Made by a program: the position numbers and the translations under genes. Positions 1,607 through 24,757 of a stretch of DNA of 64,000 bases are shown piece after piece. How positions within the stretch are numbered: position 1 is the first letter of the stretch; every line of letters starts with the position of its first letter. The notes beneath the pieces were generated by a model. That model was not told the DNA's origin. It searched no databases and saw only the letters and a list, made by a program, of their open reading frames with translations. Origin of the DNA: an uncultured Acidobacteriota bacterium. Lineage in GTDB: Bacteria; Acidobacteriota; Thermoanaerobaculia; Multivoradales; UBA5704. Location of the stretch: assembly GCA_963700145.1 (NCBI GenBank), contig OY969474.1:4544001-4608000 (forward strand). The letters run 5' to 3'.

Positions 1607-1688
1607 TGAGTTCCTCGACAGCCGCCGATCTGACTCACTGCGGTCGCCTGTACGAGCTTCGCAGCTGGGCCCCTTGGCGCGCCCATGT

Positions 1689-3762
1689 TCACCCTCCGCC
1701 CAGCACCTTCATCGCCGCCGTCTTCGGATCCCCGTAGAAGATCGGATCGACGTGCTCCATGATGTCGGCGCTCACGTCGAGGAAGTTCCGCTTGTTCTCG
1801 ATCGGCACCAAGGCCCGCTTCGCGCCATTGTCCTTCGCGACCTGGAGGGGTTCGGTCAGGGAGCGAACCGGCTTGATGTTGCCTTGCACGCTGAGGTCCC
1901 CGAGGATGAGCAGGGCCGGGCTCATCGGAGCCTTGCGGAGGGCGGAGTAGGCGGCAACGAAGAAGGCGACACCGATCTCGGCTTCCACGCGATTGCCGAG
2001 GAGGTCGATCACCTCGACGTGGAGGTCGGAGTTGTCGAGATCGCGCGCGACGCCCAATTCGCTCTTCTTGGTCTGCAGGTAGCCGAAGGCGCGCTGCACC
2101 GACTCCTTCATCGCGCCGGCGAGCCCGCCCGCCATCTTGAGCTTGCCGGTGCCGGTGGAGACCGAAACCTCGAGCCGGTAGAGACCGACCGTGCCGTCCG
2201 ACGTGACGCCGGCGGTGTACACGGTGCCTGGCGCCAACGGGTCGGATGAGATGAGGTCGCGGCCACCCTGCTCCGGCACACCGACGAACCGCTCCTCGCC
2301 AGTCTGCTGGTCCGTGTAACTGAACGAGGTGTGGTAGTACTCGAAGGACCCCATCTTCTTGAGCTGCTCCTTCACCCGGCGCCGGCCTTCCAGGGCGAGC
2401 TCCAGGATCTCCGCCAGCTCGTCGGGCTCGATCTCGCCGTGCGGGAAGAGGATCTTCATGAGCCCGGAGACCGTCTTGCGCACAGCCTTGCGGTCGCGGG
2501 CGTTGAGGTGCGCTCCGAGAGCGAAGTGGCGGTCGATGACCTCGGTGAAGTTGTGCTTGCGGAGTTCCCGCAACGCCTCCGCCAGGTAGTCGACGACGAA
2601 TCCGTAGTGATCGGTGAACAGGTCGTTGCGCATCTTCGGGATCTCCCACCCGGGGAGATAGAAGTGCAGGCGGTCAATGAAGGCCATGTCCTCGCGGATG
2701 ACGTCGGGCATCGGCGCGAAGAGGTGACCGGTCTGTACCATCACGTCGATCGGCTGGTTGGTGTTGCCGAACATCGCGACGCTCGCCTCGCCCGAGGCCG
2801 CCTCGCTGCCACGCTGGTAGGTGCCCGACTCGCAGTAGGTCTTCATCGTCGTGACGACCTCCTTGGGCATCTTCTGGAGGTCGGCCACCTCGTCGAAACC
2901 GACGACGTCCCAGATCTGCACCATCCCCTTCTGGCGGCCGCTCATGTGACCGAAGAGATTGGCCACGGTCGTCGGCCCAGTCAGCAGCGCGGCGTAGGGG
3001 GACACCTCCTGGATCACGTAGCTCTTGCCAGTCCCGCGCGGGCCGAGCTCGACCAGGTTGAAGTTGCGCTCGGCCAGGGGCACGAGGCGGAGGAGGAAGA
3101 GCATCTTCAGGCGCCGCGTCATCGCGCTCGGCTCGTAGCCCATGCTCCGGACCATCAGGTCGAGCCACTCGTCGGTCGTGACCTCCCGCCGGAGGCGGCG
3201 GTACTCCTCGAGGTCGAACGTCGCGATCTGGATCGGGGTCAGCTTCTCGATCCAGAACGGGTTCTTGCCCTTGGTCTCCTCGTCGTACTCGAAGCGCATG
3301 TCCACCTGCGCCCAGACGCCGCCCATCACCAGGCGCTCGTAGTCGCGGACGTAGTGCTCGGGAATGTGGACGTTGCGGTGACCGAAGTTGTTGAGCTCGG
3401 CCCAGTAGTCGGAGTCGACGAGGCGCACCTTGACCTTGTCGATGAAGGTGTGCCGGCCGCGGTCCTTGACCTTGGCCTGGGCCTTCATCGACTCGTCGGA
3501 CCGGATGTAGTTGTTGGCGAGCGTGTCGTTGACGACCGGAGAGGCCCATCTGGATCGCGAGCTCGTCGCTCGACGCGCAGTACTTTCCGAGTAGGTACTC
3601 GAGGACGAACACAGGGACGTTGGCGCCGACCTTCACCTTGCGGACGAGATCCTTGCGGACGACCTTTCCGGCGAAGAGCCGATTGACCTTGTCGTCGAGC
3701 GGGTCCCTCGGCGGGATCGCGGGGCCCGTGGCCGTCCCATTCAGTGCAGTGCCGTCGCTCAT
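1689..3762 (-). CDS. brxL: BREX Lon-like AAA+ protein BrxL (one frameshift at ~3540, probably sequencing error)
   Basis: N-terminus FAGKVVRKDLVRKVKVGANVPVFVLEYLLGKYC in one frame, continuing in ORF 1689..3488 with Walker A GPRGTGKS, VGFDEVA, AFIDRLHFYLPGWEIPK and a C-terminal Lon-like domain. Confidence 0.93.
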
Positions 3763-3767
3763 GGTCG

Positions 3768-6341: not shown

Positions 6342-9300
6342 CAGACCTCCTCCGCGAGCCCGGTGCCGGCTCGCTTCCTTCGGCCACCCTTGCGGGGACC
6401 GTTCGCGCCGGTGAGTTGCGGCGCTTCGAGCAGGCTCTTCAGCGCAGCCTTCACAGCCGGCGAGGTACGCTCCCGCACGAGCTCGTCGATCGGTCGGGTT
6501 GGCCTCTTCCGCGCGGCCCACTTCCCGTCGCTGCCCTCGACCCAGAAGACCTCCTCGAGTCCATGGGCAATCGCGAAGCTTCGATCGGTAGCGCACTTCG
6601 GGACCACGCGCTCAGGCCAGAACCGCATCGCCGACCGCGACCAGTCCAGGTCACCGTCACAGAGTTCCTTCCAGGCAGCTTCGGCCTTGGTTCGTGAGTC
6701 CCGGTGAGGAATCAGGCGGAAGAACGGCGCCATATTGATTACGACCCCGTCGTCGACGCTCGGCGCCCACAGCGGGATGACGCGATCCAACTCCCCAGCG
6801 AACTCGCGAAGCTCGGTCACGAGGGCTTCAGCAGCGGCCAGAGCAGCGCGGGTGGCGGTGTTTCCCTTCTCACCGGCTTCGCTTCGTGCGGCCTCAGCAG
6901 CTCGTTCGGCGCGAGCCAGACGTGGCGCGAGGATCTCGTTGCGTAGGATGAACAGGGTGTCGGAGTTTGCTGCATGCGCCATGAGCAGCACGCCGAAGCT
7001 GCCCGACGTGGTGCCAAACCACGTGTAAAGCGGGGCTCGTCGACGTCCCTTGCTGTAGCGGCGCGCATGATCGGTGTAGAAGCCCGACGCACCGGCGTCG
7101 GAGAGGTAACTGCTCAAGTGGTCGACACGAAGAGCACCGCACAATTGCGCGAGGGCGTCGGGCGCAGCGTTCGGCCAGATGTGCGCTAGGGCCTCTTCGA
7201 GGAGACGGTCCGCGAAGTCGGGATCTGCCCGGTCGACGACAACCATGGCCGACGAAGGCAGGTCGATCGGATAGCCCCTCGGCTTGGCCGACTTGAGAAA
7301 GGTGGTCGGCGCAACATCGAAGCAGGCGAGAGGGGAGAGCTTGGGCGCGTCCTCCGCGAAGCGCCGGACGTCGAAGCGTCCGATCGCGACCCCAACCGCC
7401 AGCGACGTGAGCGCGCGCGCCGTCTCCCTCCTGCGATCGTTGTCCAACGCAGGCCGCTGAGGGCACCAGGGGCCATCGGTCGGCGCATCGCACTCGGCGA
7501 ACTCTTCCTTCATTGCCTCGACGTCCTCACGCTTGAAACCGAGCGACGTCGAAACCAGATTGTCGAGCGATGCCCGCGCCGACAGCGCTGCTCCCACCAA
7601 GCGTTCATCTTCGGCCAGCTCGGCGGTGATGAACTCGTCGAGCGTCTTGGCCGTGCAAAGCGCCTGCGAGGGGTGGTACTGATGGGTCGTTTCGTCGTTA
7701 CGCAGCAGCAGCATCGCGGCGCTACTGATCGAGTCACCGAGTTCACCGACCTGCTTCGCCACCTCCGGCGTGAAGTCCGGCCACGGGAGGTCGCCAACCT
7801 GGCCGACCTCATAGTGGTTCTGGTAGGCGCCCTTGCGGCCTTGGATTGACCCGTTCGAGAAGCTGAGGATGTACTCGGCAGGGCGACTCGAGAGATAGCC
7901 GAGCAACGTGCCGGCGCTTGTGCTCTTGGGGAAGGCCACCGACCCCATATGGCCGAATCCAATGCCAGACGGGAACGCGCGCGGGTTGAAGCCGAGGACT
8001 GCCCGCGCCGGGAACGTGACACCGGGGCGGCCGAAGAACTGGATGTTCTGGGGACGCGCCTTTTCGTAGGCACGCACCTCTCGACCATCGCGTTCCCAGC
8101 GGATGATCCAGGTGATGTCGTCCCAGAAGGGACTGTACTCGCTGCTTTTGGCGAACGGCAGCCAGTCCTCTCCAGCACCGACGCGTTCCACCGGCAGTTC
8201 CCACCACGCGCGCACGAAGCGCGGGTCATCGGCGCACGCTACGCCCTGCCTCACCTCCGCGCCGGTGCCTTCGAGCGCCGGGAAACGCGTCAGGTCGGAG
8301 CGCAGTGCGGTCGAGATCCAGTAGACGAGCGGCGACGTCCGATACGCGCGAAGTGCATCGATGGTCACCGCGAAGGCGGGTGGCTGCTCGATTCCTTGGC
8401 GTCGGTCCTTGATGCTCGCAGCGAGCGCGGCCGCCTTGTCTTCGGCGCGGAGGCATCGGAAGAACACCGCCCCGGCCTTCTCTCGCGCGGGACCAACGAC
8501 GGTCGCTGCTGCACCGACGCTCGCATTGTCGAGGACGTGGCCACCAAGGTGAGCCCCCACCGCGACGGAGCTTTCGGCACCGACCAGAATGCGTTGTCGC
8601 CACGTTGCAAGCGTGTGCTTGAACCACAGCGTGCTCGAGGAGACCACGCCCGTGAGCCCGCCGCGGGCCCATCGCGTTGCCGACGCATGTATGAACGCGG
8701 CACCGAGATCGTCGTCGCAGCTCGCCAGGTGTGGGTTGCTCGCCTTCTTCCCTGCGTTGGTCGGCTCACCAAAGGGCGGGTTCATCAAGACGACGTCGAA
8801 CGACTTCTCGGCGACGGCAAGCAGTCCGATGCCCTGCTCGGCATCGTCGGCGAAGAGCCTGCGTCGAGTACTGGTACGCGCCTCCTCCGATACGAAACGA
8901 AGGAGTGCGGCGCGGATGCGCTCCTCCGGCGGCGCGAAGAGGCTCCGGGTCTTGCCCCGCTCTGGTGTCTGACTCATGAACGTCTCGACCGGAAGCAGTA
9001 GACCGAGGTCCCCTGCAAGGTTCAGCTTCGCGACAAGCGCAATGAAGACTCGCCCGAGCTCCGCATCGCCGAGCCGCGAGACGAATTCCTTGGTGAGCTG
9101 CTCGTCGGCGACGAGCGGTTCGGCTATGACAATGTTCGACCGTCGAATCTGCGACCGGTCAACACGGGCAAGCGAGAGATCGCGGAAGGCGCGTTGCGCG
9201 CGCATCCACAGGGCGAGTTGGGCGATCTGTGCGCAGCGCGGATCGATATCGACGCCGTAGAGGTTGTGCGCGACCACCAAACCCGGCACGGCCCTCCGCA

Positions 9301-10306
9301 GTGTCTCGATGCTCGCGTAGTCCTCAGCGATCGTCCTTCCCGTCGCCTCGCTCTTTGGGCTCGCCGGGTCGGCGTGCGCCTCTTCGTAGATCGCGAGCAG
9401 GAGGTCGAAGGCGTAGAGCAGAAAGTGACCGCTGCCGCATGCTGGGTCGAGCACGCGCAGGTCGCGCGGGTCCTTCTTCGCGCGCGGCGCGAACTCCTCG
9501 CCGGGCTTGCGCACCATGTACGCGCATTTGTCCGCGAGCGCGGTCTCCGTGCCGCGCATCTCGTACCAGATGCGACCAAGCGTGTTGTCGGTGAGGAACT
9601 GGACGACGTAGCGCGGCGTGAAGAACTGATTCCGCACGGCCAGCTCGCGGCTGTTGCGCGGCTCTTGGCTCTCCTCGCGCATCTTGCGGCGCTCGTCGCC
9701 GCCGTTGAAGTACTGGTAGACCCAGCCGATCGTCTCGTCCTCGCCCCAGACGCTCGCCAGCTCCGCGCCATTCAGGAGGGCGAGCAGCGCCTCGAAGGCG
9801 GCCCTGCGCGGCCAGAGCACCGACGCCGGGTCGCGTCGGTCGAAGAGGACCTTGATCTCGGTGGAAAGCTCGTCGAATAGAGATTCGATGTAGAGCCGAT
9901 ACCCCGTGCTGTCAGGGAGAAGGAGGAGGCCGGCGGCCAAGCCGCAGAACTCCCGGTAGCCCGCCGAGTCTTCTCCCTTGCTGATGCACTCCTGCACCAG
10001 ATCGCGCGCCTCCAGCATCTTGAGCGCCACGAACCGGTTGAGCGTCGTGAACGCGGCGTCGCGGAGATAGTCCGCTATGGCCTCGGCATCCTTCATCCCG
10101 GCAGCGCGCTTGTGCTCGATCGAGGCCACGATCCGCTCGCGCTGGGCTGCGCGACGGGGATCGAGGTGCCGGCCGGCTACCGCCGCGACGGCGCCCGAGC
10201 GTTGGACATCGAAGTCGCCCTCGAGCTGCGCGGCGAAGTCCTCCGCGAGCAGGCCCCGGGCGCGCTGCGTCGCCCGTTCGATGGCGTTGCGTGTGTCCTT
10301 GTCCAT
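6341..10306 (-). CDS. pglX: BREX adenine DNA methyltransferase PglX (BrxX)
   Basis: 1321 aa; QFFTPRYVV, motif I LDPACGSGHFL, motif IV MNPPF; C-terminal DDGVVINMAP; lies between brxC and pglZ. Confidence 0.93.
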   Translation of the reverse strand: MDKDTRNAIERATQRARGLLAEDFAAQLEGDFDVQRSGAVAAVAGRHLDPRRAAQRERIVASIEHKRAAGMKDAEAIADYLRDAAFTTLNRFVALKMLEARDLVQECISKGEDSAGYREFCGLAAGLLLLPDSTGYRLYIESLFDELSTEIKVLFDRRDPASVLWPRRAAFEALLALLNGAELASVWGEDETIGWVYQYFNGGDERRKMREESQEPRNSRELAVRNQFFTPRYVVQFLTDNTLGRIWYEMRGTETALADKCAYMVRKPGEEFAPRAKKDPRDLRVLDPACGSGHFLLYAFDLLLAIYEEAHADPASPKSEATGRTIAEDYASIETLRRAVPGLVVAHNLYGVDIDPRCAQIAQLALWMRAQRAFRDLSLARVDRSQIRRSNIVIAEPLVADEQLTKEFVSRLGDAELGRVFIALVAKLNLAGDLGLLLPVETFMSQTPERGKTRSLFAPPEERIRAALLRFVSEEARTSTRRRLFADDAEQGIGLLAVAEKSFDVVLMNPPFGEPTNAGKKASNPHLASCDDDLGAAFIHASATRWARGGLTGVVSSSTLWFKHTLATWRQRILVGAESSVAVGAHLGGHVLDNASVGAAATVVGPAREKAGAVFFRCLRAEDKAAALAASIKDRRQGIEQPPAFAVTIDALRAYRTSPLVYWISTALRSDLTRFPALEGTGAEVRQGVACADDPRFVRAWWELPVERVGAGEDWLPFAKSSEYSPFWDDITWIIRWERDGREVRAYEKARPQNIQFFGRPGVTFPARAVLGFNPRAFPSGIGFGHMGSVAFPKSTSAGTLLGYLSSRPAEYILSFSNGSIQGRKGAYQNHYEVGQVGDLPWPDFTPEVAKQVGELGDSISSAAMLLLRNDETTHQYHPSQALCTAKTLDEFITAELAEDERLVGAALSARASLDNLVSTSLGFKREDVEAMKEEFAECDAPTDGPWCPQRPALDNDRRRETARALTSLAVGVAIGRFDVRRFAEDAPKLSPLACFDVAPTTFLKSAKPRGYPIDLPSSAMVVVDRADPDFADRLLEEALAHIWPNAAPDALAQLCGALRVDHLSSYLSDAGASGFYTDHARRYSKGRRRAPLYTWFGTTSGSFGVLLMAHAANSDTLFILRNEILAPRLARAERAAEAARSEAGEKGNTATRAALAAAEALVTELREFAGELDRVIPLWAPSVDDGVVINMAPFFRLIPHRDSRTKAEAAWKELCDGDLDWSRSAMRFWPERVVPKCATDRSFAIAHGLEEVFWVEGSDGKWAARKRPTRPIDELVRERTSPAVKAALKSLLEAPQLTGANGPRKGGRRKRAGTGLAEEV

Positions 10307-10318
10307 CCGAGGCGCCCT

Positions 10319-13300
10319 TTACTGAACGATGACCTTCTTGCCCGCGCCGATCAGCCGGGCACATTCCTCGCGGACTCCGTCGAGCGCCGCGTCGAGCTGC
10401 TCCTCCGTCTCCACACCACCGGCGAAGTAGCTCCCGAGGTTCACGGCGACGACCCGCTCGCCGTCGAGGAGCTTGCGAATCTCGGCCACAGCACTGCGTA
10501 GGCGGCCGTCGCAGGCGTCTCGATCGGCACGGAGCTGGGGAATCGGCGTGCGCCCCTCGTCCCGGTGCGTTGCCCGCTGAAACGGCCCGGCGAGTCGCTG
10601 CTGCTCGGGTTCGGCGATCTCGTCCCAGCCAGGTGTCTTGACGAGGGATTCGTAGGCCTGGGAGTAGTCGGCGATCCGGGACGCGAGCGCTCGCGCGAAG
10701 CGGGCCTCGTATTCCGACTCGATCGCCTTGGTGTGCTGCTCGATCGCCACCAGATCGCGGAAGAAGGTCTCCCGCAGCAGAAGCTCTTCCAGCTCGTGAG
10801 CTCGGGTTCGGAGGTCCTCGCCGATGTCGGGCTCCTGGCGAAGAAATCCCCAGAGCGCGGCCTGGGCGTGGCGCGCGCGCTCGAGATCGTGAAGTCTGGG
10901 CTCGGTCAGGGCGGCTTCGAGCTCGAGGGAGCGCTTGATCGCGTCCTTGATCGTGCGATGGCTCGCATTGAAAGTGGCGATCGCAGCATCCTCCGTTCCC
11001 CGGAGGATGGCCTTCATCTGCCCCAGCGCTCCTTCCAGGAGGCTCCCGCCGGGCAGACGATGGGCGGTGAGAAGAGAAGAGGCCGAAGCCACGGTGTCCT
11101 CGTTACGGGCGATCTCGCGCCGGAGCTCGGCCGCCACCGCTCCCGCGTTCAGTTCGCGCACTTCGCTGCCAAACGTCTCCCGGAACGCCTCGGCGGCGCG
11201 GATGAGCTCCTCGAACTCGATCCCCTTCTTCGGGCGGAAGGAGGCTTGGCGGAAGAGGTTGTTGTTCGAGAAGGTCTCTCGCGCTTCGACCCCGGTCGTC
11301 GAGTCCAGAATCTGGCCCTTGCTCGTCGCCTCGATCTTCCCAGCACGCAGCAGTGACAACACCAGCAGCCGGACGATCTCGAAGTCCCAGCCGAAGGGCT
11401 CCTTCGCGAGCTCATCGGTCAGATAGCGCCCGCTCGCGGTGTCGCCGTAGTTGGCGCGTTCCTCGATCCGGTCGAGAATCTCCTTGAGCGGTCCGCTCTC
11501 GACGCGGAACACGGTTTTCCCCTTCTCGTCGCGCAGCAGGCCGAGGCTGGCGAACACGGGGGGGAGCCCTTGCAGGTTGTCGGCGGAAAAGAGGGCGTCG
11601 GCGCCCTTGCGGACCTCCGTTGCCTTTGCTGCGGCCTCCTTGAAGCGGTCGAAGACCTCGGGCAGCACCTGCCCGAGCACCTCGGTTGCGGTCTTGCCGA
11701 CGTCGACCGCCCGGTCGCCTGGGCTTCGGTCGTTGCCCCGGAAGTAGATGCGGCCGGCGAGGCAGGCACCGCGAACGAGCCGGCGCAGCTCATCGGTGTG
11801 GCGCCGCAGCCGAAGGCGCTCCTCGGCGAGGAGCGCCGGCGTGTCCTCGCCTTTCGTCTCGCGCTCCTTGCGGGCCAGCATCTCCTTGGAGCGAAACAGC
11901 TGAACGGTCTCACGGTCGATGGCGTCCGTCAGTCCGACCGCCCAGAAGACGCTCTTGCGCTCCTGCTGGCTCCTCACCCTAAGCTCGGCGGCCAGACTTT
12001 CAAACGCCTTCCCGTCTTCAGCGAGATAAAGCTGGAAGACGAGGTCGCCGGCGGTGAGCTCCCGTCCTTGGATCGACAGGCCTGCCTTGAAAGTCTTGGT
12101 GTCGTGGAGGGTGAACGAAGGCTGTGGCTGCCAGAATCCCGCGAGCAGCTCGGCATAGATGCGGTGAGCGTCGCCCGGCTTCGGGTTGATGCCGTTGCGC
12201 AGGCGCTCCCAGTCGTCCTCGGCCGGCGTGGGGATTCGGTAACCGTCGTCCCCGCGGCGCACCTGGTGCGCGGCCTCGAGCTGCCGCAACGCCTCCTTGA
12301 CCGATGCGAGCTGCCCATCGGCGTCGACGCTCGGATGAAGCGCCGCGGCGATGTTCTCGGCGCTGCGGTGCACGCTCTTGACGTACTGGAGGAGACAGAT
12401 GACCTTGGCGACGGGCTGCGCGAGCGGGTGATCGACCTTGCGCGCGATCTCGGCGATCTTGGCCCTCACCTCCGATCCGATGTTCCCTTCGACCAGGTCG
12501 TAGACATGGTCCAGGCGCACGAGGGCGCCAATGGGTTGATCGGCGAGGTTGACCGCCGGGTTGATCAGCAGCTGCTGCGCGAGCTTGATGATGGTGCGGT
12601 TCGCGCCCCCGACGTGCTTGCTCGCGCCGCCTTGGGTGCGCAGGCCCGAGACGACCTGGATGATGAGGTCGATCTGGTAGGGCAGGAGCGGGTAGAGGTC
12701 GACGAAGGCATCCCGGGTGAGCTCGGGCAGCTTGATGTCTGCGGTCAGCCGGATGTTCTCGGTCAGCCGACCACGATGCTCCTCGAAAAGCTGGCCGAGG
12801 GCCGTCTGTGCCGCCGCGTTCTTGGACAGGACTCGGCGGCTCGTGACCTCCGAGATGTCCGACGGCTCGAGGTGGACCTGAAGGGGAAAGCGATCCATCA
12901 AGCGGGCCAGCTCGATCTTCTTGTCGTCGAGGCCGCTGACCAGCTCGCCCAGCTTTTCCTGGGAGGTCACGACGACCCAGTGCTTACCCCGGCCCTTGAC
13001 GCCGAGGCTCTGAACGATCGCCTGCAGGTCGAGCATCTTCTGGACGTCGCGGGCGACGAACTGGCCGACTTCGTCGACGACGAACATCAGCGCGCGCCCG
13101 GGCTTGCGACGCTTCATCAGCTCGCCGGCGCGCTCGGCGAGCTTGCCGGGAGAGATGTCGGCCTTGTTCTTGACCGCCTTCACCCAGGAGTCGGCCGCGG
13201 GATAGGTCTCGGGGTCGAGGCTGTGCAGAACCCGGCTGGCCTCGCTGAGCGCGAAGGCCACCTTGCCCTTCTCCGCGTTCCACTCCTTGCCGAACAGGCG

Positions 13301-13861
13301 CCTGTACTCCCCCTCGAATTGCTCCAGCTGACCTTTCTCCTCCAGCCCGATCTCCAACTCCGAAAGATCCAGGTCCTTCGCGTAGCCGAGGCTCTGGAGG
13401 AAGAGCCCGTACATGATCTCGGTGAGGGTTTGGTTGCCGCTGCGAATGCCGCGATCCGTCGAGACGTCGAAGATGACGGCGTGGGTGGGGATGCGTTCAT
13501 TGATGCCGCGGAGGAGCACGGCGAGCTTGTTGTCGACGGTGCGCTCGGCGAACCGCACGCCCGCGGGCGAACCGGCAATCGCCCGATTCGCGATCGCCAG
13601 GCCGAGCATCTTGGCGAAGCTGGACTTGCCCGACCCGAAGAACCCCGAGACCCAGACCGCGATCCCTTCGTGGGGCTTGTTGGGAGTCTCCAGGTAAGCG
13701 TCGAAGATGCCGGTGTAGTGACTCCGAATCGCGTCGGTGACGACGTACTCGCTGATCTCCTCCCGGATGATCTCTTCGTCGGTCTGATCGACCTTGATGA
13801 CTTCTTCGATCCGACGGTGGATGTCGTTCGCGAAGAGGCTCTTGATCGAGGTGGGCGTCAT
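10319..13861 (-). CDS. brxC: BREX P-loop ATPase BrxC
   Basis: 1180 aa; IHRRIEEVIKV, WVSGFFGSGKS (Walker A), FVVDEVGQ (Walker B), VTSQEKL, YPLLPYQ. Confidence 0.95.
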   Translation of the reverse strand: MTPTSIKSLFANDIHRRIEEVIKVDQTDEEIIREEISEYVVTDAIRSHYTGIFDAYLETPNKPHEGIAVWVSGFFGSGKSSFAKMLGLAIANRAIAGSPAGVRFAERTVDNKLAVLLRGINERIPTHAVIFDVSTDRGIRSGNQTLTEIMYGLFLQSLGYAKDLDLSELEIGLEEKGQLEQFEGEYRRLFGKEWNAEKGKVAFALSEASRVLHSLDPETYPAADSWVKAVKNKADISPGKLAERAGELMKRRKPGRALMFVVDEVGQFVARDVQKMLDLQAIVQSLGVKGRGKHWVVVTSQEKLGELVSGLDDKKIELARLMDRFPLQVHLEPSDISEVTSRRVLSKNAAAQTALGQLFEEHRGRLTENIRLTADIKLPELTRDAFVDLYPLLPYQIDLIIQVVSGLRTQGGASKHVGGANRTIIKLAQQLLINPAVNLADQPIGALVRLDHVYDLVEGNIGSEVRAKIAEIARKVDHPLAQPVAKVICLLQYVKSVHRSAENIAAALHPSVDADGQLASVKEALRQLEAAHQVRRGDDGYRIPTPAEDDWERLRNGINPKPGDAHRIYAELLAGFWQPQPSFTLHDTKTFKAGLSIQGRELTAGDLVFQLYLAEDGKAFESLAAELRVRSQQERKSVFWAVGLTDAIDRETVQLFRSKEMLARKERETKGEDTPALLAEERLRLRRHTDELRRLVRGACLAGRIYFRGNDRSPGDRAVDVGKTATEVLGQVLPEVFDRFKEAAAKATEVRKGADALFSADNLQGLPPVFASLGLLRDEKGKTVFRVESGPLKEILDRIEERANYGDTASGRYLTDELAKEPFGWDFEIVRLLVLSLLRAGKIEATSKGQILDSTTGVEARETFSNNNLFRQASFRPKKGIEFEELIRAAEAFRETFGSEVRELNAGAVAAELRREIARNEDTVASASSLLTAHRLPGGSLLEGALGQMKAILRGTEDAAIATFNASHRTIKDAIKRSLELEAALTEPRLHDLERARHAQAALWGFLRQEPDIGEDLRTRAHELEELLLRETFFRDLVAIEQHTKAIESEYEARFARALASRIADYSQAYESLVKTPGWDEIAEPEQQRLAGPFQRATHRDEGRTPIPQLRADRDACDGRLRSAVAEIRKLLDGERVVAVNLGSYFAGGVETEEQLDAALDGVREECARLIGAGKKVIVQ

Positions 13862-13876
13862 CGGTGGCTTCCCTGG

Positions 13877-14452
13877 TCAGAAGATCTTCGGCCGATAGTT
13901 GTGTTCAGCGTCGAGCACGCCCATGAAGCGGAGACCTGCCGCGCCATCGAGGTCTCCGGGATAGAAGAGGACAGTTGGCACGTGGACTTGGCCCTTGAGC
14001 TGCTCGAGCAGAGAAAATGTGCGGTAGACGGGGAAGAGGGCACCTGTCCGAAGGATGAACACCAGGTCTCGTCGCGGATCGGGGTCCGCGGGCATTCGAG
14101 CAACGACGAGATCCACGAGCGGGGAGTACTCGGACAGCACGGAGTGGATGGTCTCGACGATGGTGTCGACGCCCTGCTCGCGTTCGGCCGCGAACCATTC
14201 CTCGAGCGGTCGCTGCGACCGCATGGCCTCGTCGAGGCATTCGGCAAGGGAGATCCTGTGGACTCGCTTGCCCTTCTGCGAGAGGCGCGTCTCCAGTAGC
14301 GTGACTTGCTGCCGCAGCGCGAACTCCTCCTCCGGGTCGTAGCGGAAGAGTGCGTACGGCATGTCGTGGTAAGCGCTGATCCGCTGGGCCGGATCCACGA
14401 GCTCGAGGATCGGCTCGAGGTCCTGTTTGAGGCGCCGCTCGAAGTCGCTCAT
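13877..14452 (-). CDS. brxB: BREX protein BrxB
   Basis: Start MSDFERRL coupled to the brxA stop; GALFPVYR...TVLFYPG...LRFMG...NYRPKIF, typical of BrxB/DUF1788-like proteins. Confidence 0.88.
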   Translation of the reverse strand: MSDFERRLKQDLEPILELVDPAQRISAYHDMPYALFRYDPEEEFALRQQVTLLETRLSQKGKRVHRISLAECLDEAMRSQRPLEEWFAAEREQGVDTIVETIHSVLSEYSPLVDLVVARMPADPDPRRDLVFILRTGALFPVYRTFSLLEQLKGQVHVPTVLFYPGDLDGAAGLRFMGVLDAEHNYRPKIF

Positions 14453-15234
14453 GCCACCATCCTCTCGGCGAACTCGCGCGCGCTCGCGCACGGCAACGAG
14501 ATCTGCACCAGACTGCCGGCAGCCTGGTAGTCGACCTTTCGGAACTGGTGCAGCCGGAGGAGCTCGCGTTCGACCTCGCTCGGCCTCATCAGGTAGAGGC
14601 GCCAGTCCGGAGACGCGATCAACTTTGCGGGCCCTCCCTGCTCGTCGCGGATCGCATGGAGGAGATACAGAAAGCTGCGCTCCGGCAGATGGTAGGAAGC
14701 GAGCTCCTTGCTGACCGCACCCCGGAGCAGGCCGAAGTCTGCGGCGATCTTGAGCAAGCCAGCAGCGACGCGCTCGGTGGTTTGCACCGACCAAGCGTGC
14801 TCGGTCGTGCCGCCGCGCTTTTCGACGCCCCGGAGGTACGGCACGACGTCTTGGGTGCGGATCCGAAAGGCCCCGGCATCGAACGCCTCGAAGAGCCACC
14901 CGGTGATGAAGTCCCGAACGAGGAACTCGTCGCGAGTCATGTGCCAGAGCAGGAGCGGCTTCCACTCTTCGACGGGCACGCCGTTCTGCGCCAGGGTCAC
15001 CAGCGACCGGTCGCGCGAATCGGGATCGAACCGCCGATTCAGTACCTTCGCGACATCGCGCAGCCAGGTCGCGCTCCGAGCACCGATGAAGTTCTCGACG
15101 CGCAGCCGCTCGAGGTTCTCCCGTTTCGAGCGCGTCAAGTCCCAAGCCGCGAAGGTGGCATACGTCTCTTCGACCATCGCGCCCTTGACGACGGTGAACG
15201 ACGAGACCACGTTGGAGCGGGACGCTCGCCTCAC
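14449..15234 (-). CDS. brxA: BREX protein BrxA (DUF1819-like)
   Basis: 261 aa; LLLWHMTRDEFLVRDF, WSVQTTERVAAGLLKIAADFGLL; position immediately before brxB. Confidence 0.85.
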   Translation of the reverse strand: MRRASRSNVVSSFTVVKGAMVEETYATFAAWDLTRSKRENLERLRVENFIGARSATWLRDVAKVLNRRFDPDSRDRSLVTLAQNGVPVEEWKPLLLWHMTRDEFLVRDFITGWLFEAFDAGAFRIRTQDVVPYLRGVEKRGGTTEHAWSVQTTERVAAGLLKIAADFGLLRGAVSKELASYHLPERSFLYLLHAIRDEQGGPAKLIASPDWRLYLMRPSEVERELLRLHQFRKVDYQAAGSLVQISLPCASAREFAERMVA

Positions 15235-15803
15235 GAGTCGATCCTCATGAAGGGCACGACGGGGGCGCCTGCCTCACCGAGCGTGAAGCCCAGAGCCAGT
15301 AGTGCGATGTCTTCGTCAGAGCCCGAGTAGATGCCGGGAATTGCGACGGCGCGTCCTTCCGCCGATCGCCGCAGGCGGGCAGCCGCTTCGAGCTCGGCGC
15401 TCTTGACCAGCCCCAGCGCTCCGAGTTCGTTTCGCAGGTGCTCCCAGCGCAATCGCTCCACGGCGAGGAAGAACGGCTCCCACTCGGGCGCCGCGTCCAG
15501 CCAGACTTCGAATCGAGCGTCGAGCATCTCCTCCAACGCGGCTGGCAAGCCCCAGAGCGTTACGGCCCCAGGCGGCGCGTACACCTCACAGCACCGGTGG
15601 GCCGCCACCGCGAAGACGGAACGAGCTTGAGCGAAGCGGTGAGTGCGCGGTAGGCCGCGGCGGAGGGCCTTCGCTCCGAGAGGCCCGAGCTGGCCCCGGG
15701 TGTTCCACCACCTCGCGAAGTCCATCTCGCCGGCGCGCGCGATCGCGACCCGGAGCTTGAAGAGGCGCTCCACGTCCACGATCGAAGCGACCAGCGAGCT
15801 CAT
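15231..15803 (-). CDS. brxE: BrxE-family protein
   Basis: LRVAIARAGEMDFARWWNTRG...LPRTHRFAQARSVFAVAAHRC...TLWGLP resembles the BrxE family; stop overlaps the brxA start. Confidence 0.8.
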   Translation of the reverse strand: MSSLVASIVDVERLFKLRVAIARAGEMDFARWWNTRGQLGPLGAKALRRGLPRTHRFAQARSVFAVAAHRCCEVYAPPGAVTLWGLPAALEEMLDARFEVWLDAAPEWEPFFLAVERLRWEHLRNELGALGLVKSAELEAAARLRRSAEGRAVAIPGIYSGSDEDIALLALGFTLGEAGAPVVPFMRIDS

Positions 15804-16015
15804 CGGCGGGCCTTCTCGTCGTCGGAGGGCTTTCGCGCCGCGCCCCCAGCGCGCACCCATTCGTCGACTTCGTCGGTCTTGAACTTCCAGAGCCGGCCGA
15901 CCCGATGGCCCGGCATACCCTTCTCCGAGACCCAGGAGTAGACGGTGTCGCGGCTCACTCCGAGGTAGTCCGCGATCTCTTCCACGGACAGCCAGCGATC
16001 GGAGACGTTGGGCAT
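15800..16015 (-). CDS. Excisionase-like helix-turn-helix DNA-binding protein (HTH_17)
   Basis: WLSVEEIADYLGVSRDTVYSWV...PGHRVGRLWKFKTDEVDEW; ATGA-coupled to brxE. Confidence 0.9.
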   Translation of the reverse strand: MPNVSDRWLSVEEIADYLGVSRDTVYSWVSEKGMPGHRVGRLWKFKTDEVDEWVRAGGAARKPSDDEKARR

Positions 16016-16165
16016 TGCGCGCTCCATGCGGATCGGACGCGAAAGTAAATTGCTGAACAGCTCAATCATAGTCGAGCTGAGCCGATCAAGCCGGATCTCT
16101 CCGGTTCTTTTCGGGATGGTGTGGCAGGATGGCGGAGGTCCGAGGCCAAGCCCCGGCGTCCCCGA

Positions 16166-17275
16166 CTACATCAGCGCTCGGAGGCGCTCGGCCAGTTGCT
16201 CGGCGTCGCGAGGTCGAAGGGTCGAGTCAGGCGCAAACGCCGTCTTGAAGTACCTCGTCAGGCCCGAGGAGCAGGTCGGAAGTCGCTCAGTGAGAGGGAT
16301 CGCGCGGGACTCGACGATCCTCGCTGCAAGCTCTTCTGGGCTGCCGCCCTCGAACGGGCGGCGTCCGGTCAGGACTTCATAGAAGACCACGCTGAGCGCC
16401 CAGAGATCGAAAGAGGGATGAGCACGCTGGTGGCCGTGCGCCTCGGGCGAGAGGTAGGCGGGTGTGCCCACGACCACGTGCCCGGAGATGCCCGACATCG
16501 TTGCCTCGCGTTCCAGCCGCGCCAAGCCGAAGTCGAGGAGCTTCAGGTCGCCGGCGCTATTCAAGGCGATGTTGCGCGGTTTGATGTCGCGGTGGACGAC
16601 GCCGGCCTTGTGGAGGCAGCCGACGACCTCGGTGACCTGGAGCATCACCTCGATCGCCTCGTCGAGCGGCATCGGGATGCGCTCGGCCAGCGTGCCCCCG
16701 TCGACGAACTCCATGATGATCATCGGCGTGCCGCGATAGACCTTGAAGCCGAAGACCGTTGCGAGATTCCGGTGCGAGACTGCGGCGAGGGTCTGGGCTT
16801 CGCGCCGCAGGCGGGCGATGTCGTTCGGCGAGCACACGGTCGGCAGCGTCTTGACCGCAACGCGGCGGCCAAGCGAGAGATCGAGCGCCTCATAGACGAC
16901 GCCGGATCCGCCTTTGCCGATCCGCCGCTCGAACTGGAGCCGACCGGGGATGGCTTTCGGGACGAGGCTCGGCGTCAGCGCGGCGCCGCAGCGGCTACAG
17001 AAGTGGTGCTCGGCCGAGTAGACCCAGCCGCCGCACCCGCACTCGTTGCCGACCGGCACTTGGTCGAAGCTGTCCGGCAAGTCCGGCGTGACGCGATACT
17101 CGGCGCGCTCCTCGGCGATCTCCGAGTGGACGGCCTCAGCCATGCGAACCAGAGCTTCCGCGACTCGCTCGCGGTCGATGCCGTCACCGAGACACCTGTC
17201 CACGGCCCGCCGCAGGTAGCGATTCGCCGCGACGGAGCCTGCCTGCTCTGCTTTCGTGTCTTCGGTGGACTCCAT
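16166..17275 (-). CDS. Soluble Hanks-type Ser/Thr protein kinase with N-terminal Zn-ribbon
   Basis: CGCG...FCSRCG ribbon; GKGGSG, VAVK, HRDIKPRN, DFG, GTPAYLSPE. Confidence 0.92.
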   Translation of the reverse strand: MESTEDTKAEQAGSVAANRYLRRAVDRCLGDGIDRERVAEALVRMAEAVHSEIAEERAEYRVTPDLPDSFDQVPVGNECGCGGWVYSAEHHFCSRCGAALTPSLVPKAIPGRLQFERRIGKGGSGVVYEALDLSLGRRVAVKTLPTVCSPNDIARLRREAQTLAAVSHRNLATVFGFKVYRGTPMIIMEFVDGGTLAERIPMPLDEAIEVMLQVTEVVGCLHKAGVVHRDIKPRNIALNSAGDLKLLDFGLARLEREATMSGISGHVVVGTPAYLSPEAHGHQRAHPSFDLWALSVVFYEVLTGRRPFEGGSPEELAARIVESRAIPLTERLPTCSSGLTRYFKTAFAPDSTLRPRDAEQLAERLRALM

Positions 17276-17281
17276 CCCTCG

Positions 17282-17319
17282 CTCTGAACTTGAACTCTGA
17301 ACAAAAGTCCCCGTATGCT
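17282..17319 (+). promoter_or_regulatory. Putative sigma70-type promoter with TGAAC direct repeats in the divergent intergenic region
   Basis: TTGAAC (17290-95), 18-nt spacer, TATGCT (17314-19); three TGAAC copies within 17285-17302. Confidence 0.4.
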
Positions 17320-17356
17320 AAGAGTCTTGGGGGGAGTTGTCCACACCCTGACTGTC

Positions 17357-17947
17357 ATGAAGACCACACATTCTGACCCCCTGGCCCTGGAGGAGATCGC
17401 CGCCGTGCTGCGCGCTGCGCGCGAGGGTCGCCACGGCGTGCGCGACCACGCGATGCTCCTGACCCTCTATCACCACGGTCTGCGCGTAAGCGAGCTCTGC
17501 CGGCTGACTCTTCCCGACCTCGACCTCGGGAGTCGGAGGCTGTGGGTGGAGCGACTCAACCGAGGCCGCTCGGGCGTGCATCCGATACCCGACGACGAGG
17601 CGCGGGCGCTCGCCGCTTACCTCGCCGAGCGTGAGGACCAAGGCACGTTGAATCTCTCGGCGCTGTTCCTCAACGAGCGTCGGGCAACGCTCAGCCGCAA
17701 CGCGGTGTACTACCTGGTGCGTCGTGCCGGCGAGGCCGCCGGGCTCGAGCGCCCGTTGTTTCCACACCTTCTACGCCGCTCGACCGGCTCGAAGCTCGTC
17801 GGCGAGGGGCATGACGTTCGACTCGTTCAGGACTATCTCGGCTTGCGTTCCGCTCGCAGCGTGCTCCGGTTCATCGGCGAGGCACCGCCGGACAACCCGA
17901 ACGGCGAGCGGTTCACGGCACTTTGGGGGGAGGCAGGAGGAGGATGA
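17357..17947 (+). CDS. FimB/FimE-like tyrosine recombinase catalytic-domain protein with degenerate active site
   Basis: RDHAMLLTLYHHGLRVSEL, HLLRR, QDYLGLRSARSVLRF (FimB-type QDYLGHRNIRHTVxY with H->L and Y->F). Confidence 0.85.
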   Translation: MKTTHSDPLALEEIAAVLRAAREGRHGVRDHAMLLTLYHHGLRVSELCRLTLPDLDLGSRRLWVERLNRGRSGVHPIPDDEARALAAYLAEREDQGTLNLSALFLNERRATLSRNAVYYLVRRAGEAAGLERPLFPHLLRRSTGSKLVGEGHDVRLVQDYLGLRSARSVLRFIGEAPPDNPNGERFTALWGEAGGG

Positions 17948-18609
17948 CGGATCGACCACTGAATCCGCTGAAACTCGCCGCGACGCTGCACTGGAATCCA
18001 GAGGACCGGGTGACGCCGCGGGACCTGGACTCGAAGCGCGTGCTCGACCACTGGCTCCAGCAGATCGAGCACTTCGACCCGATCTTCGCTCCCGAGTACG
18101 TCGAGGCACCGGCGCTGCTCTCGGAGCTGTTCATCGAGGAGACGGGCCACGCCGGCCGCATGGAGCGCGTCGACGAGGACAATCGGTTCCATCACTGGGG
18201 GCTCTGTCAGCACTTGCTGGCCGAATCCCAGCGCTCGGCTGCTTCCAGCGCCGTCCTGTCGCGCGACCTGAGCGAGCTGGCGGTCGCCGTTGCAATGCGC
18301 CTCGATCCCGGGCACTATCACCTGAGCTGGACCGAGGATCTTCGCGCCAAGGCGTGGTGCGTTCACGCGGGAGCGTGGCGCCGCCTGAACCGGCTCGAGG
18401 ACGCCGCGGTCGCCATGGGCGAGGCCCAGAAGCACGCCCGGGCGGGGACCTCGAGCGCCGAGCTCGCGGCACGGATCGAGAAGACCGAGATGAGCTTGAA
18501 CTGGCGGGTCGACAGCAAGAGGTGGAATGGAAGCGCGTGCGCTTCGATGGGCGCGACCTTGCCGGTCGTCGTTGCCGACGATCCTTCCTCGCACTCCAGG
18601 GTCTCTTGA
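17944..18609 (+). CDS. Hypothetical alpha-helical (TPR-like) protein
   Basis: ATGA-coupled to upstream gene; WGLCQHLLAES...LAVAVA..L...DLRAKAW...RR...A helical-repeat pattern. Confidence 0.6.
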   Translation: MTDRPLNPLKLAATLHWNPEDRVTPRDLDSKRVLDHWLQQIEHFDPIFAPEYVEAPALLSELFIEETGHAGRMERVDEDNRFHHWGLCQHLLAESQRSAASSAVLSRDLSELAVAVAMRLDPGHYHLSWTEDLRAKAWCVHAGAWRRLNRLEDAAVAMGEAQKHARAGTSSAELAARIEKTEMSLNWRVDSKRWNGSACASMGATLPVVVADDPSSHSRVS

Positions 18610-18614
18610 CGGAG

Positions 18615-19019
18615 ATGGCGCGTCCGCGGTCGAACGAGCGCCCGAAGGCACGGGCCAAGGCGATGCCGGAGAAGCCGCTCTCCCCAGCGGAGTGGCGCAT
18701 CATGCAGTCGTGCTGGAAGCTCGGCCGCACGACGATCCGCGACATCCTGCTCGACATCGCCGACCGGCCGCCGGCCATGTCGTACAGCATGATCCACATG
18801 CTCCTCACACGAATCGTCGAGAAGGGCTACCTCGCGCTCGAGCAGGATCGCGGCAACAACTACTACGCCGCGGCCGTCGAGCGCGACAGCATCGTCCGCC
18901 TCGCGGCCGAGGACTTCATCGACAACACCCTCGCCGGCGAAGCCAAGAACCTCGAGATCCTCAACGAGGTTCTCGCCGAGCGCAAGGCGGCTCGCCCGCG
19001 CGGGCGCAAGGCAACCTAG
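18615..19019 (+). CDS. BlaI/MecI/CopY-family transcriptional repressor
   Basis: LSPAEWRIMQSCWKLG.TTIRDI...SYSMIHMLLTRIVEKGYL...YYAAAVER...FID. Confidence 0.9.
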   Translation: MARPRSNERPKARAKAMPEKPLSPAEWRIMQSCWKLGRTTIRDILLDIADRPPAMSYSMIHMLLTRIVEKGYLALEQDRGNNYYAAAVERDSIVRLAAEDFIDNTLAGEAKNLEILNEVLAERKAARPRGRKAT

Positions 19020-19057
19020 GGGGCCGTTCACTACGGTGGTTGCCTTGGTGCGCTCGA

Positions 19058-19077
19058 ATCTCTACAATTGTTGAGAT
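19058..19077. promoter_or_regulatory. Palindromic operator resembling the BlaI/CopY box
   Basis: ATCTC-T-ACAATTGT-T-GAGAT: 20-bp palindrome with one mismatched pair, containing TACAatTGTt (consensus TACAnnTGTA). Confidence 0.6.
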
Positions 19078-19311
19078 CGACGACCGAGGACGGTCGCTGG
19101 CGACGCCGGTTGGCGAATCGCGGAAGGCGGACGTGCCCCCGGGTGTCAACATCCGTTGAACTTAGACGTGTCGGGAGTAGAATGCTCACCGTAGTCCGAT
19201 GCCGCGAGATTCTCGGCGCCGATTGCCGGCTGACCGACGCCGAAGTCGAGAAGCTGCGCGACTTCGTCTACGGCTTTGCGGACATCGCGCTGAGGATCGC
19301 CAGGGAGAGTC

Positions 19312-20910
19312 ATGACGCAGGACGGAGCTGGAACCCTCAACGGCGGCGCTGGGAAGAGCGCCAAGCGGAGCGCCGCCCGGGCGGTGGTCTACTGCCGGGT
19401 GTCCAGCCACGAGCAGCTCAAGGGCCTGAGTCTGGAGACGCAGTCGAAGGCCTGCATCGACTACTGCCGTTCCCAGGGGATGGAAGTGGCGGAAGTCTTC
19501 GTGGAGCGGGCCGAGTCGGCGAGCACGACCGACCGGACGCAGCTCCAGCGGATGCTGACCTACTGCCGGACGCACCGGGGGCGGATCCACTTCCTGGTGG
19601 TCTACATGCTGGACCGCTTCGCGCGGAACCAGTACGACCACCACGCTTTGAAGGCCCACCTGCAGAAGCTCGGGATCACGCTGCGGGCGGTCGCTCAGCC
19701 GATCGACGACTCGTCGACCGGGAAGCTGATGGACGGCATCCTGGCGGCGTTCAACGAGTTCGACAACAACGTCCGACGGGAACGCTGCGTCACGGGGATG
19801 CAGGCGGCGGCGAGCAAGGGACGCTGGGTGTTCCCGCCGCCGCTCGGCTATCGAATCGCGCTGAAGGCTGACGGCGCGAAGACGATCGAGCCGGACCCCG
19901 AGGCGGCTCCTCTGGTCCGCCACGCTTTCGCGATGGCGGCCTCCGGCCTCCACAGCGTCGCCGACATCCTGCGCGAGGTGCGGCGCCGTGGCCTCACGGG
20001 CCGGCGGGGGGCAACGCTGTCGAGCACGATGATGCACAAGATCCTGCGCAAGACGGTCTATCAGGGCCGCGTCGTGGTCGAGGAGTGGGGCATCGACGTC
20101 GCGGGCGACTTCGAGCCCCTCGTCGACGCGGAGACCTTCCTGTTGGCGCAGGCTGGGCGCGATGTCAAACGCCAGCCGATCGCCGGCTATCAGCGCAACC
20201 ACCCGGACTTTCCGCTGCGTCGTTTCGTGCGTTGTGGTCACTGCTCCCGGCCCCTGACCGGCGCCTGGTCGAAGGGGAAGCGGGCGCGCTACGCCTACTA
20301 CAACTGCCCAGGTTGCCGCCGGATCAACGTTCCGCAGCAGCAGTTCGAGGCGCGCTTTGTCGAGCTCCTGGACCGCCTCAGTCCTCGGCCCGAGGTGCTG
20401 CGGCTACTCTCCGCCGCCGTGCTCGAGCGCTGGAACGAGGAGCAGAAGGGTGTCGTCGAGAAGCGGCGGGCGATCGAGCAGCGGCTCGAAGTGCTTCAAC
20501 AGCGCAAGGAGCGGGTCGTGAGCGCCTACCTCTACGAGGGCGCGATCGACAAGGAGACCTACCAGTCCCACATGGCGCGGGTCGAGGAGGAGCTGACGCT
20601 CGCCAAGATCGACCGCCACGACGCCGAGATCGACGAGTTCGACATCGAGGGCACCCTGGCGTTCGCCGAACACCTGGTCACCCACTCGAGTCGCCTTTGG
20701 ATTGAGGCTGCGCTGGATCAGCGGCAGCGGCTGCAGAAGCTGTTTTTCCCGGAAGGTCTCAGCTTCGACGGCGAAGAATTTCGAACACCCCTAACATGTC
20801 CATTTTTCAACAACATCGAGGGGACTTCCCAACAGGTGAGTGAAATGGTGGAGCAGAAGGGATTCGAACCCTCGACCCCCACGTTGCGAACGTGGTGCTC
20901 TCCCAGCTGA
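19312..20910 (+). CDS. Large serine recombinase (integrase) with recombinase and Zn-ribbon domains
   Basis: VVYCRVSS catalytic Ser, DRTQLQRML, LDRFARN, PPLGY, CGHC...CPGC, coiled coil; last ~21 codons read antisense through the tRNA. Confidence 0.95.
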   Translation: MTQDGAGTLNGGAGKSAKRSAARAVVYCRVSSHEQLKGLSLETQSKACIDYCRSQGMEVAEVFVERAESASTTDRTQLQRMLTYCRTHRGRIHFLVVYMLDRFARNQYDHHALKAHLQKLGITLRAVAQPIDDSSTGKLMDGILAAFNEFDNNVRRERCVTGMQAAASKGRWVFPPPLGYRIALKADGAKTIEPDPEAAPLVRHAFAMAASGLHSVADILREVRRRGLTGRRGATLSSTMMHKILRKTVYQGRVVVEEWGIDVAGDFEPLVDAETFLLAQAGRDVKRQPIAGYQRNHPDFPLRRFVRCGHCSRPLTGAWSKGKRARYAYYNCPGCRRINVPQQQFEARFVELLDRLSPRPEVLRLLSAAVLERWNEEQKGVVEKRRAIEQRLEVLQQRKERVVSAYLYEGAIDKETYQSHMARVEEELTLAKIDRHDAEIDEFDIEGTLAFAEHLVTHSSRLWIEAALDQRQRLQKLFFPEGLSFDGEEFRTPLTCPFFNNIEGTSQQVSEMVEQKGFEPSTPTLRTWCSPS

Positions 20911-20921
20911 GCTACTGCCCC
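20846..20921 (-). tRNA. tRNA-Ala(CGC)
   Basis: GGGGCAGTAGCTCAGCTGGGAGAGCACCACGTTCGCAACGTGGGGGTCGAGGGTTCGAATCCCTTCTGCTCCACCA; anticodon CGC, G3:U70 pair, encoded CCA. Confidence 0.97.
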
Positions 20922-21070
20922 ACGAGACGGGAGACCGGGCATTGTACCCGGCGCCTGCGCGACCCGGCAACTCGACGCACCGCGAGGCACGGTTCATGCT
21001 ACCGCTATCGGTACGGCCCGGAGGACGGGCCGTCCCGGACATCCCGAAGAACCAGATTGGAGGCTCGAAC

Positions 21071-22699: not shown

Positions 22700-24753
<2,054 letters not shown>

Positions 24754-24757
<4 letters not shown>

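Follow-up and report, generated by a model that had tools for sequence, protein, structure and literature searches.

The locus described here raises the question of why a mobile element would keep an intact gene for a recombinase that lacks the residues needed to cut DNA. The gene lies in a 64,000-nucleotide stretch of DNA (the window) from an uncultured Acidobacteriota bacterium (GenBank assembly GCA_963700145.1, contig OY969474.1, positions 4,544,001 to 4,608,000 of the forward strand), and it encodes a protein that consists of a tyrosine-recombinase catalytic domain and nothing else, here called the pseudo-recombinase. We are confident that this protein is catalytically dead, functional and carried by the element. 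What it does is a separate matter, on which we lean, on balance and by a modest preference, toward a subunit of the element's regulatory or excision switch that binds or bridges DNA at specific sequences without cleaving it.

Loss of the catalytic residues within a tyrosine-recombinase domain

The open reading frame (ORF) has no internal stops over 196 amino acids, and its product matches the phage integrase family PF00589 with an E value of 2.4e-31 and 109.3 bits, above the curated family cut-off of 27.1. The match covers 158 of the 172 model positions and places the domain at residues 11-169. We aligned the protein with its 120 best database relatives (121 proteins in all). The six catalytic columns in this alignment are R43, N68, H137, R140, L163 and F172, and only three of the six residues that make up the R-K-H-R-H/W pentad and the Tyr nucleophile are kept. 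The pseudo-recombinase is a tyrosine recombinase by fold and by sequence, not by chemistry.

An initial annotation, made from the DNA sequence without database searches, had proposed that the nucleophilic Tyr, the second His (His-II) and the Lys of the beta-hairpin are replaced and that the first Arg and the HxxR motif are retained. The coordinates of all three changed codons (Phe172, Leu163 and Asn68) agree with the sequence, and R43, H137 and R140 are present in the alignment. Phe172 and Leu163 occupy the true Tyr and His-II columns because the stretch from the QDYLG motif to the Tyr column aligns without gaps to the canonical relatives. An additional His of these relatives (the H in '..HT..Y') is Ser168 in the window protein. 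The intact frame and the ATGA coupling to the next gene were also verified: the ATG of that gene (17944-17946) shares bases with the recombinase stop TGA (17945-17947).

The description of the protein as FimB-like holds in part. The FimB and FimE models, NF007371 and NF007370, are the top-scoring NCBIfam models, but the scores of 126.2 bits (cut-off 222) and 123.5 bits (cut-off 221) are far below those of family members. We rejected a longer, 210-amino acid form starting at ATG 17315. This ATG sits within a conserved -10 box and its frame is broken by stops in two related loci (L007 and L015), so 17357 is the likelier start.

The fold is predicted to be that of a tyrosine-recombinase catalytic domain. 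An AlphaFold2 model had a predicted local distance difference test score (pLDDT) of 87.7 and a predicted template modeling score (pTM) of 0.83. Foldseek returned 59 matches at E≤1e-3, including XerA, XerD, lambda Int and Cre; the top match was XerA 5hxy (E 3e-11, TMq 0.77). A sequence profile search of the PDB found the archaeal XerC-like protein 4a8e at 7.7e-26.

Because the Tyr and the Lys are replaced, and the His-II as well, we infer from established enzymology that the protein cannot cleave DNA by the usual chemistry. In Cre, according to one study (PMC2943603), activity above 5% has just two strict requirements, the Tyr and the Lys. A recombinase or nuclease that is still active would have to use another nucleophile (Tyr118, Ser168 or Tyr160) or a Tyr supplied in trans, as in Flp. 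Two features are consistent with this: the Arg-His-Arg triad is invariant, and Tyr118, an Asn in canonical relatives, was gained specifically in the clade to which the window protein belongs. However, such an enzyme would have to work without the Tyr, the Lys and the His-II together. The suggestion of the initial annotation that Tyr160 (the Tyr of QDYLG) might substitute did not survive the comparison with active relatives; these conserve Tyr160 to an equal degree, so it is no replacement nucleophile. The element contains no second PF00589 gene that might donate a Tyr, and the five other matches in the genome lie no closer than 500 kb. There is also no convincing pair of inverted repeats framing an invertible segment in 15500-21200, where the longest arms are 70-76% complementary and lie inside coding sequence. 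Taken with these findings, residual cleavage activity seems very unlikely.

A single clade under purifying selection

Leu and Phe occur together in the His-II and Tyr columns of 56 of the 121 aligned proteins. Sixty proteins are canonical (57 of them exactly RKHRHY), and five are fragments or aberrant. The members of the Leu/Phe clade span 57-98% identity; relatives at ≤51% identity read R-K-H-R-H-Y. With Leu and Phe present in 55 further database sequences, the pattern is well beyond chance or error. The Lys column is more variable. Among the 56 Leu/Phe proteins it holds Asn in 45, Lys in six, His in two and Gly in one, and two fragments do not reach it. The Lys-to-Asn change noted at first is thus present in the window copy but is not general in the clade.

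We placed 53 rows in a maximum-likelihood tree (quick search, midpoint root). The Leu/Phe rows form a single clade (21 of the 53 rows; Shimodaira-Hasegawa-like approximate likelihood ratio test (SH-aLRT) 100), parted by a long branch from the 32 canonical rows. Also grouping within this clade are two anomalous rows, P0057 and P0128, the latter on a long branch. Members that keep the Lys are deep branches, and Lys (AAG) is found in the deep members L016 and L017. From this branching order, the Tyr and the His-II were lost once, and the Lys later.

The gene has a single origin and is kept under purifying selection. Pairwise comparison among the window and ten genome loci gave ratios of nonsynonymous to synonymous substitution rates (dN/dS, Nei-Gojobori) of 0.025-0.283 in all 55 pairs, at dS values up to 1.7. 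The codon of Leu163 varies among loci (TTG, CTG or CTT) with the Leu constant, which reflects synonymous turnover, and the codon of Phe172 is TTC in all 11. R43, H137 and R140 are invariant across a 19-sequence alignment of the clade, and the canonical relatives share R185, F186 and L189 in the C-terminal tail. These results, together with the fixed gene order described below, agree with the initial argument against sequencing error and random pseudogenization, and with its expectation of a Tyr-to-Phe clade with constant neighbors and dN/dS below 1. The opposite pattern, in which the closest homologs keep Tyr, His and Lys and the window copy drifts neutrally, was not found.

The same data bear on the possibility that the gene is a decaying remnant without function. 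One copy interrupted by an insertion sequence (L058) and one that is apparently frameshifted (L014) are what such decay would produce. The selection data already contradict it, however, and the reading frame is intact in 10 of the 11 genome loci, the translational coupling is conserved and the clade extends over 57-98% identity. We give decay almost no weight.

A four-gene module at the integrase end of a conjugative element

The pseudo-recombinase gene is part of a module of four genes, in the order divergent Ser/Thr kinase, pseudo-recombinase, TPR-like protein and BlaI-like repressor, which is followed by a serine integrase (Table 1). The order is fixed. Among the assessable genome loci the kinase is present in 10 of 10, the TPR-like protein in 11 of 11, the BlaI-like repressor in 10 of 10 and the serine integrase in 9 of 9. 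The corresponding counts in the assessable metagenome loci are 10/10, 9/9, 7/7 and 4/4, although metagenome contigs may share organisms with genome loci and the counts are partly non-independent. The module was not found apart from a serine integrase and a tRNA gene in any assessable locus of either kind. The four genes diverge in parallel; in L017 their identities to the window are 65, 62, 63 and 68%. Contigs from RNA libraries (runs X19 and X20; relatives at 85-99% identity) span the kinase, recombinase, TPR-like and BlaI-like genes; because DNA may have been carried over, we do not take them to prove transcription.

Table 1. Coordinates of features in the window, beginning with the pseudo-recombinase and its active-site codons.
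Feature	Position	Strand	Basis or remark
Pseudo-recombinase, tyrosine-recombinase catalytic domain only, 196 aa	17357..17947	+	PF00589; active-site columns R-N-H-R-L-F
Phe172 codon TTC, nucleophilic Tyr column	17870..17872	+	gapless alignment with RKHRHY relatives
Leu163 codon TTG, His-II column	17843..17845	+	alignment
Asn68 codon AAC, beta-hairpin Lys column	17558..17560	+	alignment
Arg43 codon CGC	17483..17485	+	kept catalytic residue
His137 codon CAC	17765..17767	+	kept catalytic residue
Arg140 codon CGC	17774..17776	+	kept catalytic residue
Kinase/recombinase intergenic region, 81 nt, two divergent promoter-like sites	17276..17356	.	-10 boxes overlap
Hanks-type Ser/Thr kinase, divergent	16166..17275	-	Pkinase E 5e-45, complete domain
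TPR-like protein, 221 aa, predicted all-alpha	17944..18609	+	start overlaps recombinase stop (ATGA)
BlaI/MecI/CopY-family winged-helix repressor	18615..19019	+	PF03965 E 2.7e-15; start ATG 18615 or 18663
Candidate operator, box CTCTACAATTGTTGAGAT with palindromic core ACAATTGT	19060..19077	.	8-locus alignment
Large serine recombinase (integrase)	19312..20910	+	Resolvase, Recombinase, Zn_ribbon_recom; 3' end enters tRNA gene
tRNA-Ala(CGC)	20846..20921	-	its 3' 21 nt are 20846-20866
Bacteriophage exclusion (BREX) cargo and DrmD-like helicase	2..16069	-	variable; conserved alongside the module only in L060 and L061

In this family of conjugative elements of Thermoanaerobaculia-type Acidobacteriota, the module occupies the tRNA-proximal end, next to the large serine integrase; the related loci come from Thermoanaerobaculia and from other metagenome-assembled genomes of Acidobacteriota. 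A tRNA gene adjoins the integrase gene in the window and in 9 of 9 other loci. This is tRNA-Ala(CGC) in the window, L007, L013 and L015, tRNA-Glu(CTC) in L008-L011 and L014, and tRNA-Pro(GGG) in L017. An exact repeat of the 3' 21 nt of the window tRNA-Ala sits 78 kb upstream (genome C1:4486799) and marks the element ends, so that the element comprises window positions 1-20866 and the 57 kb upstream of the window (~78 kb). The G+C content is ~0.60-0.70 within this interval and ≥0.73 outside it. Its genes include those for RepA, an AbiE pair, SAVED, HORMA and AAA proteins of the CBASS type, a LexA-like protein, ArdC, NikA, VirD4, VirB11, VirB3, VirB4, TrbL, VirB9, VirB10, ParB, SSB, and OLD-like and SMC-like proteins. 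Because of the type IV secretion genes, RepA, ParB and the 21-nt end repeat, the interval is an integrative conjugative element with the module at its integrase end. Its defence systems comprise the AbiE, CBASS-type, OLD-like and SMC-like genes and BREX. VirD4 is encoded 55-91 kb upstream of the module in four of five module-bearing genomes.

To see how the module and the integrase are distributed, we sampled 201 genomes of the class. The pseudo-recombinase (E≤1e-40) was present in five genomes and in none of the four other genomes of the window's own family. Kinase orthologs and strong matches to the TPR-like protein were restricted to the same five. The integrase family (E≤1e-60) was present in 15 genomes, ten of them without the module. 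Two of the module-less integrases adjoin a divergent BlaI-like gene, and next to one the BlaI-like gene is followed by a helix-turn-helix (HTH) and peptidase M78 (ImmA/IrrE-like) gene. Because module-less integrases carry a BlaI-like gene there, the integrase-adjacent slot looks regulatory.

The partner genes differ in how readily they can be classified. The TPR-like protein has no match to a Pfam family; its neighbors in a language-model atlas are TPR proteins. Its structure model is of low confidence (pLDDT 61) and all-alpha, and a Foldseek search gave nothing at E≤1e-3 and weak TPR domains only. Residues 30-195 are 27-41% identical to the N-terminal part of ~400-amino acid, multi-copy TPR proteins, which are present in 21 of the 201 genomes. 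That family (for example genome C1:1857378-1857842) has a Cys/His-rich N-terminal motif and is abundant in the order; a single genome can hold as many as 13 matches. In all loci checked, the start of the TPR-like gene overlaps or almost touches the recombinase stop. A predicted complex of the pseudo-recombinase and the TPR-like protein (alignments A1 and A2) scored 0.01, which gives no answer either way. In L060 and L061, which carry the same BREX cargo as the window, the kinase gene gives two overlapping high-scoring segment pairs (HSPs; residues 1-184 and 163-368), suggesting a frameshift or a small duplication.

How might a recombinase that does not cut serve this module? The initial annotation had named three candidate roles: a non-cleaving DNA-binding regulator, a recombination directionality factor and an inhibitor of other recombinases. 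In active recombinases the Arg-His-Arg triad holds the scissile phosphate and the C-terminal tail mediates subunit contacts, and recombinases engineered to carry Phe for Tyr still bind DNA and form synapses but do not cut. We favor a non-cleaving, DNA-binding role on the basis of the selected fold, the retained triad and tail, and the behavior of these mutants. The pseudo-recombinase would bind DNA without forming a covalent intermediate, acting jointly with the BlaI-like repressor and with the TPR-like partner to which it is translationally coupled. Its target sites could include the divergent promoter region between its own gene and that of the kinase, and the kinase might supply the input to the control module.

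In a 12-locus alignment, no other non-coding DNA of the locus is as conserved as the proposed target region, 17276-17356. A promoter scan found a minus-strand promoter-like site (TGGACA 17343-17338, N17, TAGCAT 17320-17315), with 0 expected in shuffles. A plus-strand candidate, TTGAAC 17290-17295 and TATGCT 17314-17319, was read by eye from conserved blocks of the same alignment. With their -10 boxes overlapping, the two divergent units might be transcribed in a mutually exclusive manner. A search of the window with the intergenic box GAACTCTGAACAAAAGTCC returned only the original copy. We also considered the 9-mer ACACCCTGA, which is common to this intergenic region and the left end of the element, and rejected it because ~0.3-0.7 matches are expected by chance.

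Further conserved sites lie between the BlaI-like gene and the integrase. The box CTCTACAATTGTTGAGAT is invariant over eight loci bar one position (consensus CTCTACAATTGTTGA(G/C)AT), and we take it to resemble BlaI/CopY operators. An inverted repeat, TCAAC-N4-GTTGA (19146-19159), lies over a promoter-like TTGAAC-N16-TAGAAT and is also common to the eight loci.

Several observations weigh against a DNA-binding switch subunit. We saw no convincing core site of the recombinase type, in which a spacer of 6-8 bp is flanked by short inverted repeats, and the window intergenic region holds just one 8-nt direct repeat. The two promoters and the BlaI-like repressor alone would explain the conserved intergenic boxes well enough. 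Restriction-modification or BREX cargo lies near the kinase in nearly every locus, which also fits a defence-related role. Finally, the metagenome copy in L058 is cut near residue 162 by an insertion of ~1.3 kb that encodes a 361-amino acid transposase-like ORF (L058:2330-3606), and the L014 copy gives two overlapping HSPs, which suggests a frameshift. In at least some cases, then, loss of the gene is tolerated.

The cargo leads to a second possibility, a kinase-centered module that senses stress or phage and serves in defence, abortive infection or control of the cargo, with the dead recombinase as sensor, decoy or kinase substrate. The kinase matches the PADLOC models PD-T4-6 (E 4.6e-67) and mad6 (3e-60) and, below the cut-offs, the NCBIfam models MAD6 and PglW. 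These matches carry limited information, since any Hanks-type kinase scores well on such models and the PknB-type model gives 207 bits; no PADLOC family matches any of the other three module proteins. Beyond the kinase, the genes are methyltransferase, restriction or BREX systems in all eight loci examined, although in L007 this amounts to no more than an N-terminal fragment of HsdM followed by metal-resistance genes. The kind of system varies by locus, however, which makes specific control of the cargo unlikely. In the window the BREX set consists of a MAD1-like HTH protein (83 bits, cut-off 80), a BrxE-family protein, BrxA, BrxB, BrxC, PglX and PglZ. A BrxL-like sequence was seen only as a stretch of ~60 residues in a scanned ORF, and ORF 1689-3488 was outside the scan. 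The DrmD-like SNF2 helicase is truncated at the window start. The invariant, Ser-rich C-terminus of the TPR-like partner (DDPSSHSR) is consistent with such a module; the constant association of the four genes with a serine integrase and a tRNA gene speaks against it. We consider a defence module improbable.

The pseudo-recombinase could instead be a directionality or accessory factor for the serine integrase, binding the integrase or the arms of its attachment (att) sites and deciding between integration and excision. Its gene precedes that of the integrase by 1.4 kb in 13 of 13 assessable loci, and directionality factors of serine integrases are structurally diverse. The identity of the integrase is nevertheless decoupled from that of the module: L013 has 77% identity in the module and 93% in the integrase, and L008 has 90% and 68%. 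One type of module goes with integrases at tRNA-Ala, tRNA-Glu and tRNA-Pro, additional DNA parts the module from the integrase in L011 and L015, and the integrases of the ten module-less genomes are relatives at 39-49% identity that have no pseudo-recombinase. There is also a competing candidate, a small conserved ORF from ATG 19182 (MLTVVRCREILG...) directly upstream of the integrase and common to eight loci; it has its own stop in L017 and, in the window, overruns the integrase start in a different frame.

A 12-nt motif, TTCGAACACCCC, occurs in the same orientation near both element ends, outside the 21-nt repeat, and would fit binding by a directionality factor. Copies of TTCGAACACCC(C) are at window 20780-20791 and at genome C1:4486920-4486931 and 4486938-4486948. 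The right-end copy falls in conserved integrase coding sequence (EFRTP), so the motif may be conserved merely as part of that gene, and it is absent from L017. Overall, we judge a directionality factor to be unlikely. A combination of these ideas, in which a kinase-gated dead tyrosine recombinase would bind arm-like sites at the element ends as well as its own promoter and, with the TPR-like partner, set the direction or timing of excision by the serine integrase, is an attractive but decidedly long shot.

Two other features were seen in or near such elements. In a related element (G197:C1:3745772-3746722), three copies of the 21-nt att repeat lie within 1 kb at the left end, in a longer tandem repeat, and look like remnants of repeated integration. 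Outside the element, window positions 24000-44000 have a G+C content of 0.76-0.81, with a strong AT skew around 36-38 kb.

Relation to known recombinases

The closest known proteins are one-domain recombinases. Like FimB and FimE, the window protein has a single domain of about 200 amino acids without a core-binding domain, and with these and other one-domain recombinases it has in common the GLRVSE, HxxR and QDYLG motifs and the C-terminal RF..LW tail. It differs from FimB and FimE in falling below both family cut-offs, in the replaced Tyr, His-II and Lys, and in its setting, which is not a phase-variable promoter but the control module of a conjugative element. The TnpI-like resolvases of Tn3 elements are a second point of comparison. 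Two canonical relatives from cyanobacteria (RKHRHY; 36-37% identity, ~206-211 amino acids, same one-domain layout) are encoded tail-to-tail with a Tn3-family DDE transposase (L021:9896-13491 and L023:9890-13524) and, from this context, are probably transposon resolvases, which suggests that the wider one-domain group includes such enzymes. The window locus, in contrast, has no Tn3 transposase, and its protein has lost the catalytic residues.

Laboratory mutants of Cre, Flp, lambda Int and Tn1549 Int carry the same Tyr-to-Phe substitution; a crystal structure of Tn1549 Int Y379F with transposon-end DNA (6emy) was among the Foldseek matches. These mutants are engineered, whereas the lineage described here is natural, has additional changes in the active site and has been retained by selection.

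In the full texts that we searched, natural tyrosine recombinases without the Tyr are hardly documented, and TnsF is the only described case that we found. Neither the four-gene module nor any natural clade of FimB-like proteins with Phe for Tyr was described in those texts. According to passages of the report on TnsF (PMC10293859), this protein of Tn6022-like Tn7 elements has a naturally inactivated tyrosine-recombinase domain and acts as a target selector. It is described there as a protein of ~500 amino acids with N-terminal zinc fingers and two core-binding-like domains, lacking the whole catalytic pocket and working with TnsABC/TniQ. On that description, the likeness is at the level of the phenomenon, an inactivated recombinase domain that a mobile element has retained for a role directed at DNA but not catalytic. 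The window protein differs in being a single domain of 196 amino acids that keeps the Arg-His-Arg residues of the pocket and is encoded beside a serine integrase. It has no N-terminal zinc finger, and the Tn7 families had no match among the scanned ORFs of the element, small ORFs being left out.

Dead enzymes that are retained by selection reveal which parts of a fold serve non-catalytic functions. One practical consequence concerns annotation: genes of this kind should be excluded from integrase counts when mobile elements are called. The clade is small and well delimited, and with its fixed partners on a defence-bearing conjugative element it offers a tractable system. It makes two questions addressable: by which route a recombinase fold can turn into an accessory factor or a regulator that binds DNA, and how Acidobacteriota elements that rely on serine recombinases for integration are regulated, a subject on which, to our knowledge, next to nothing is known.

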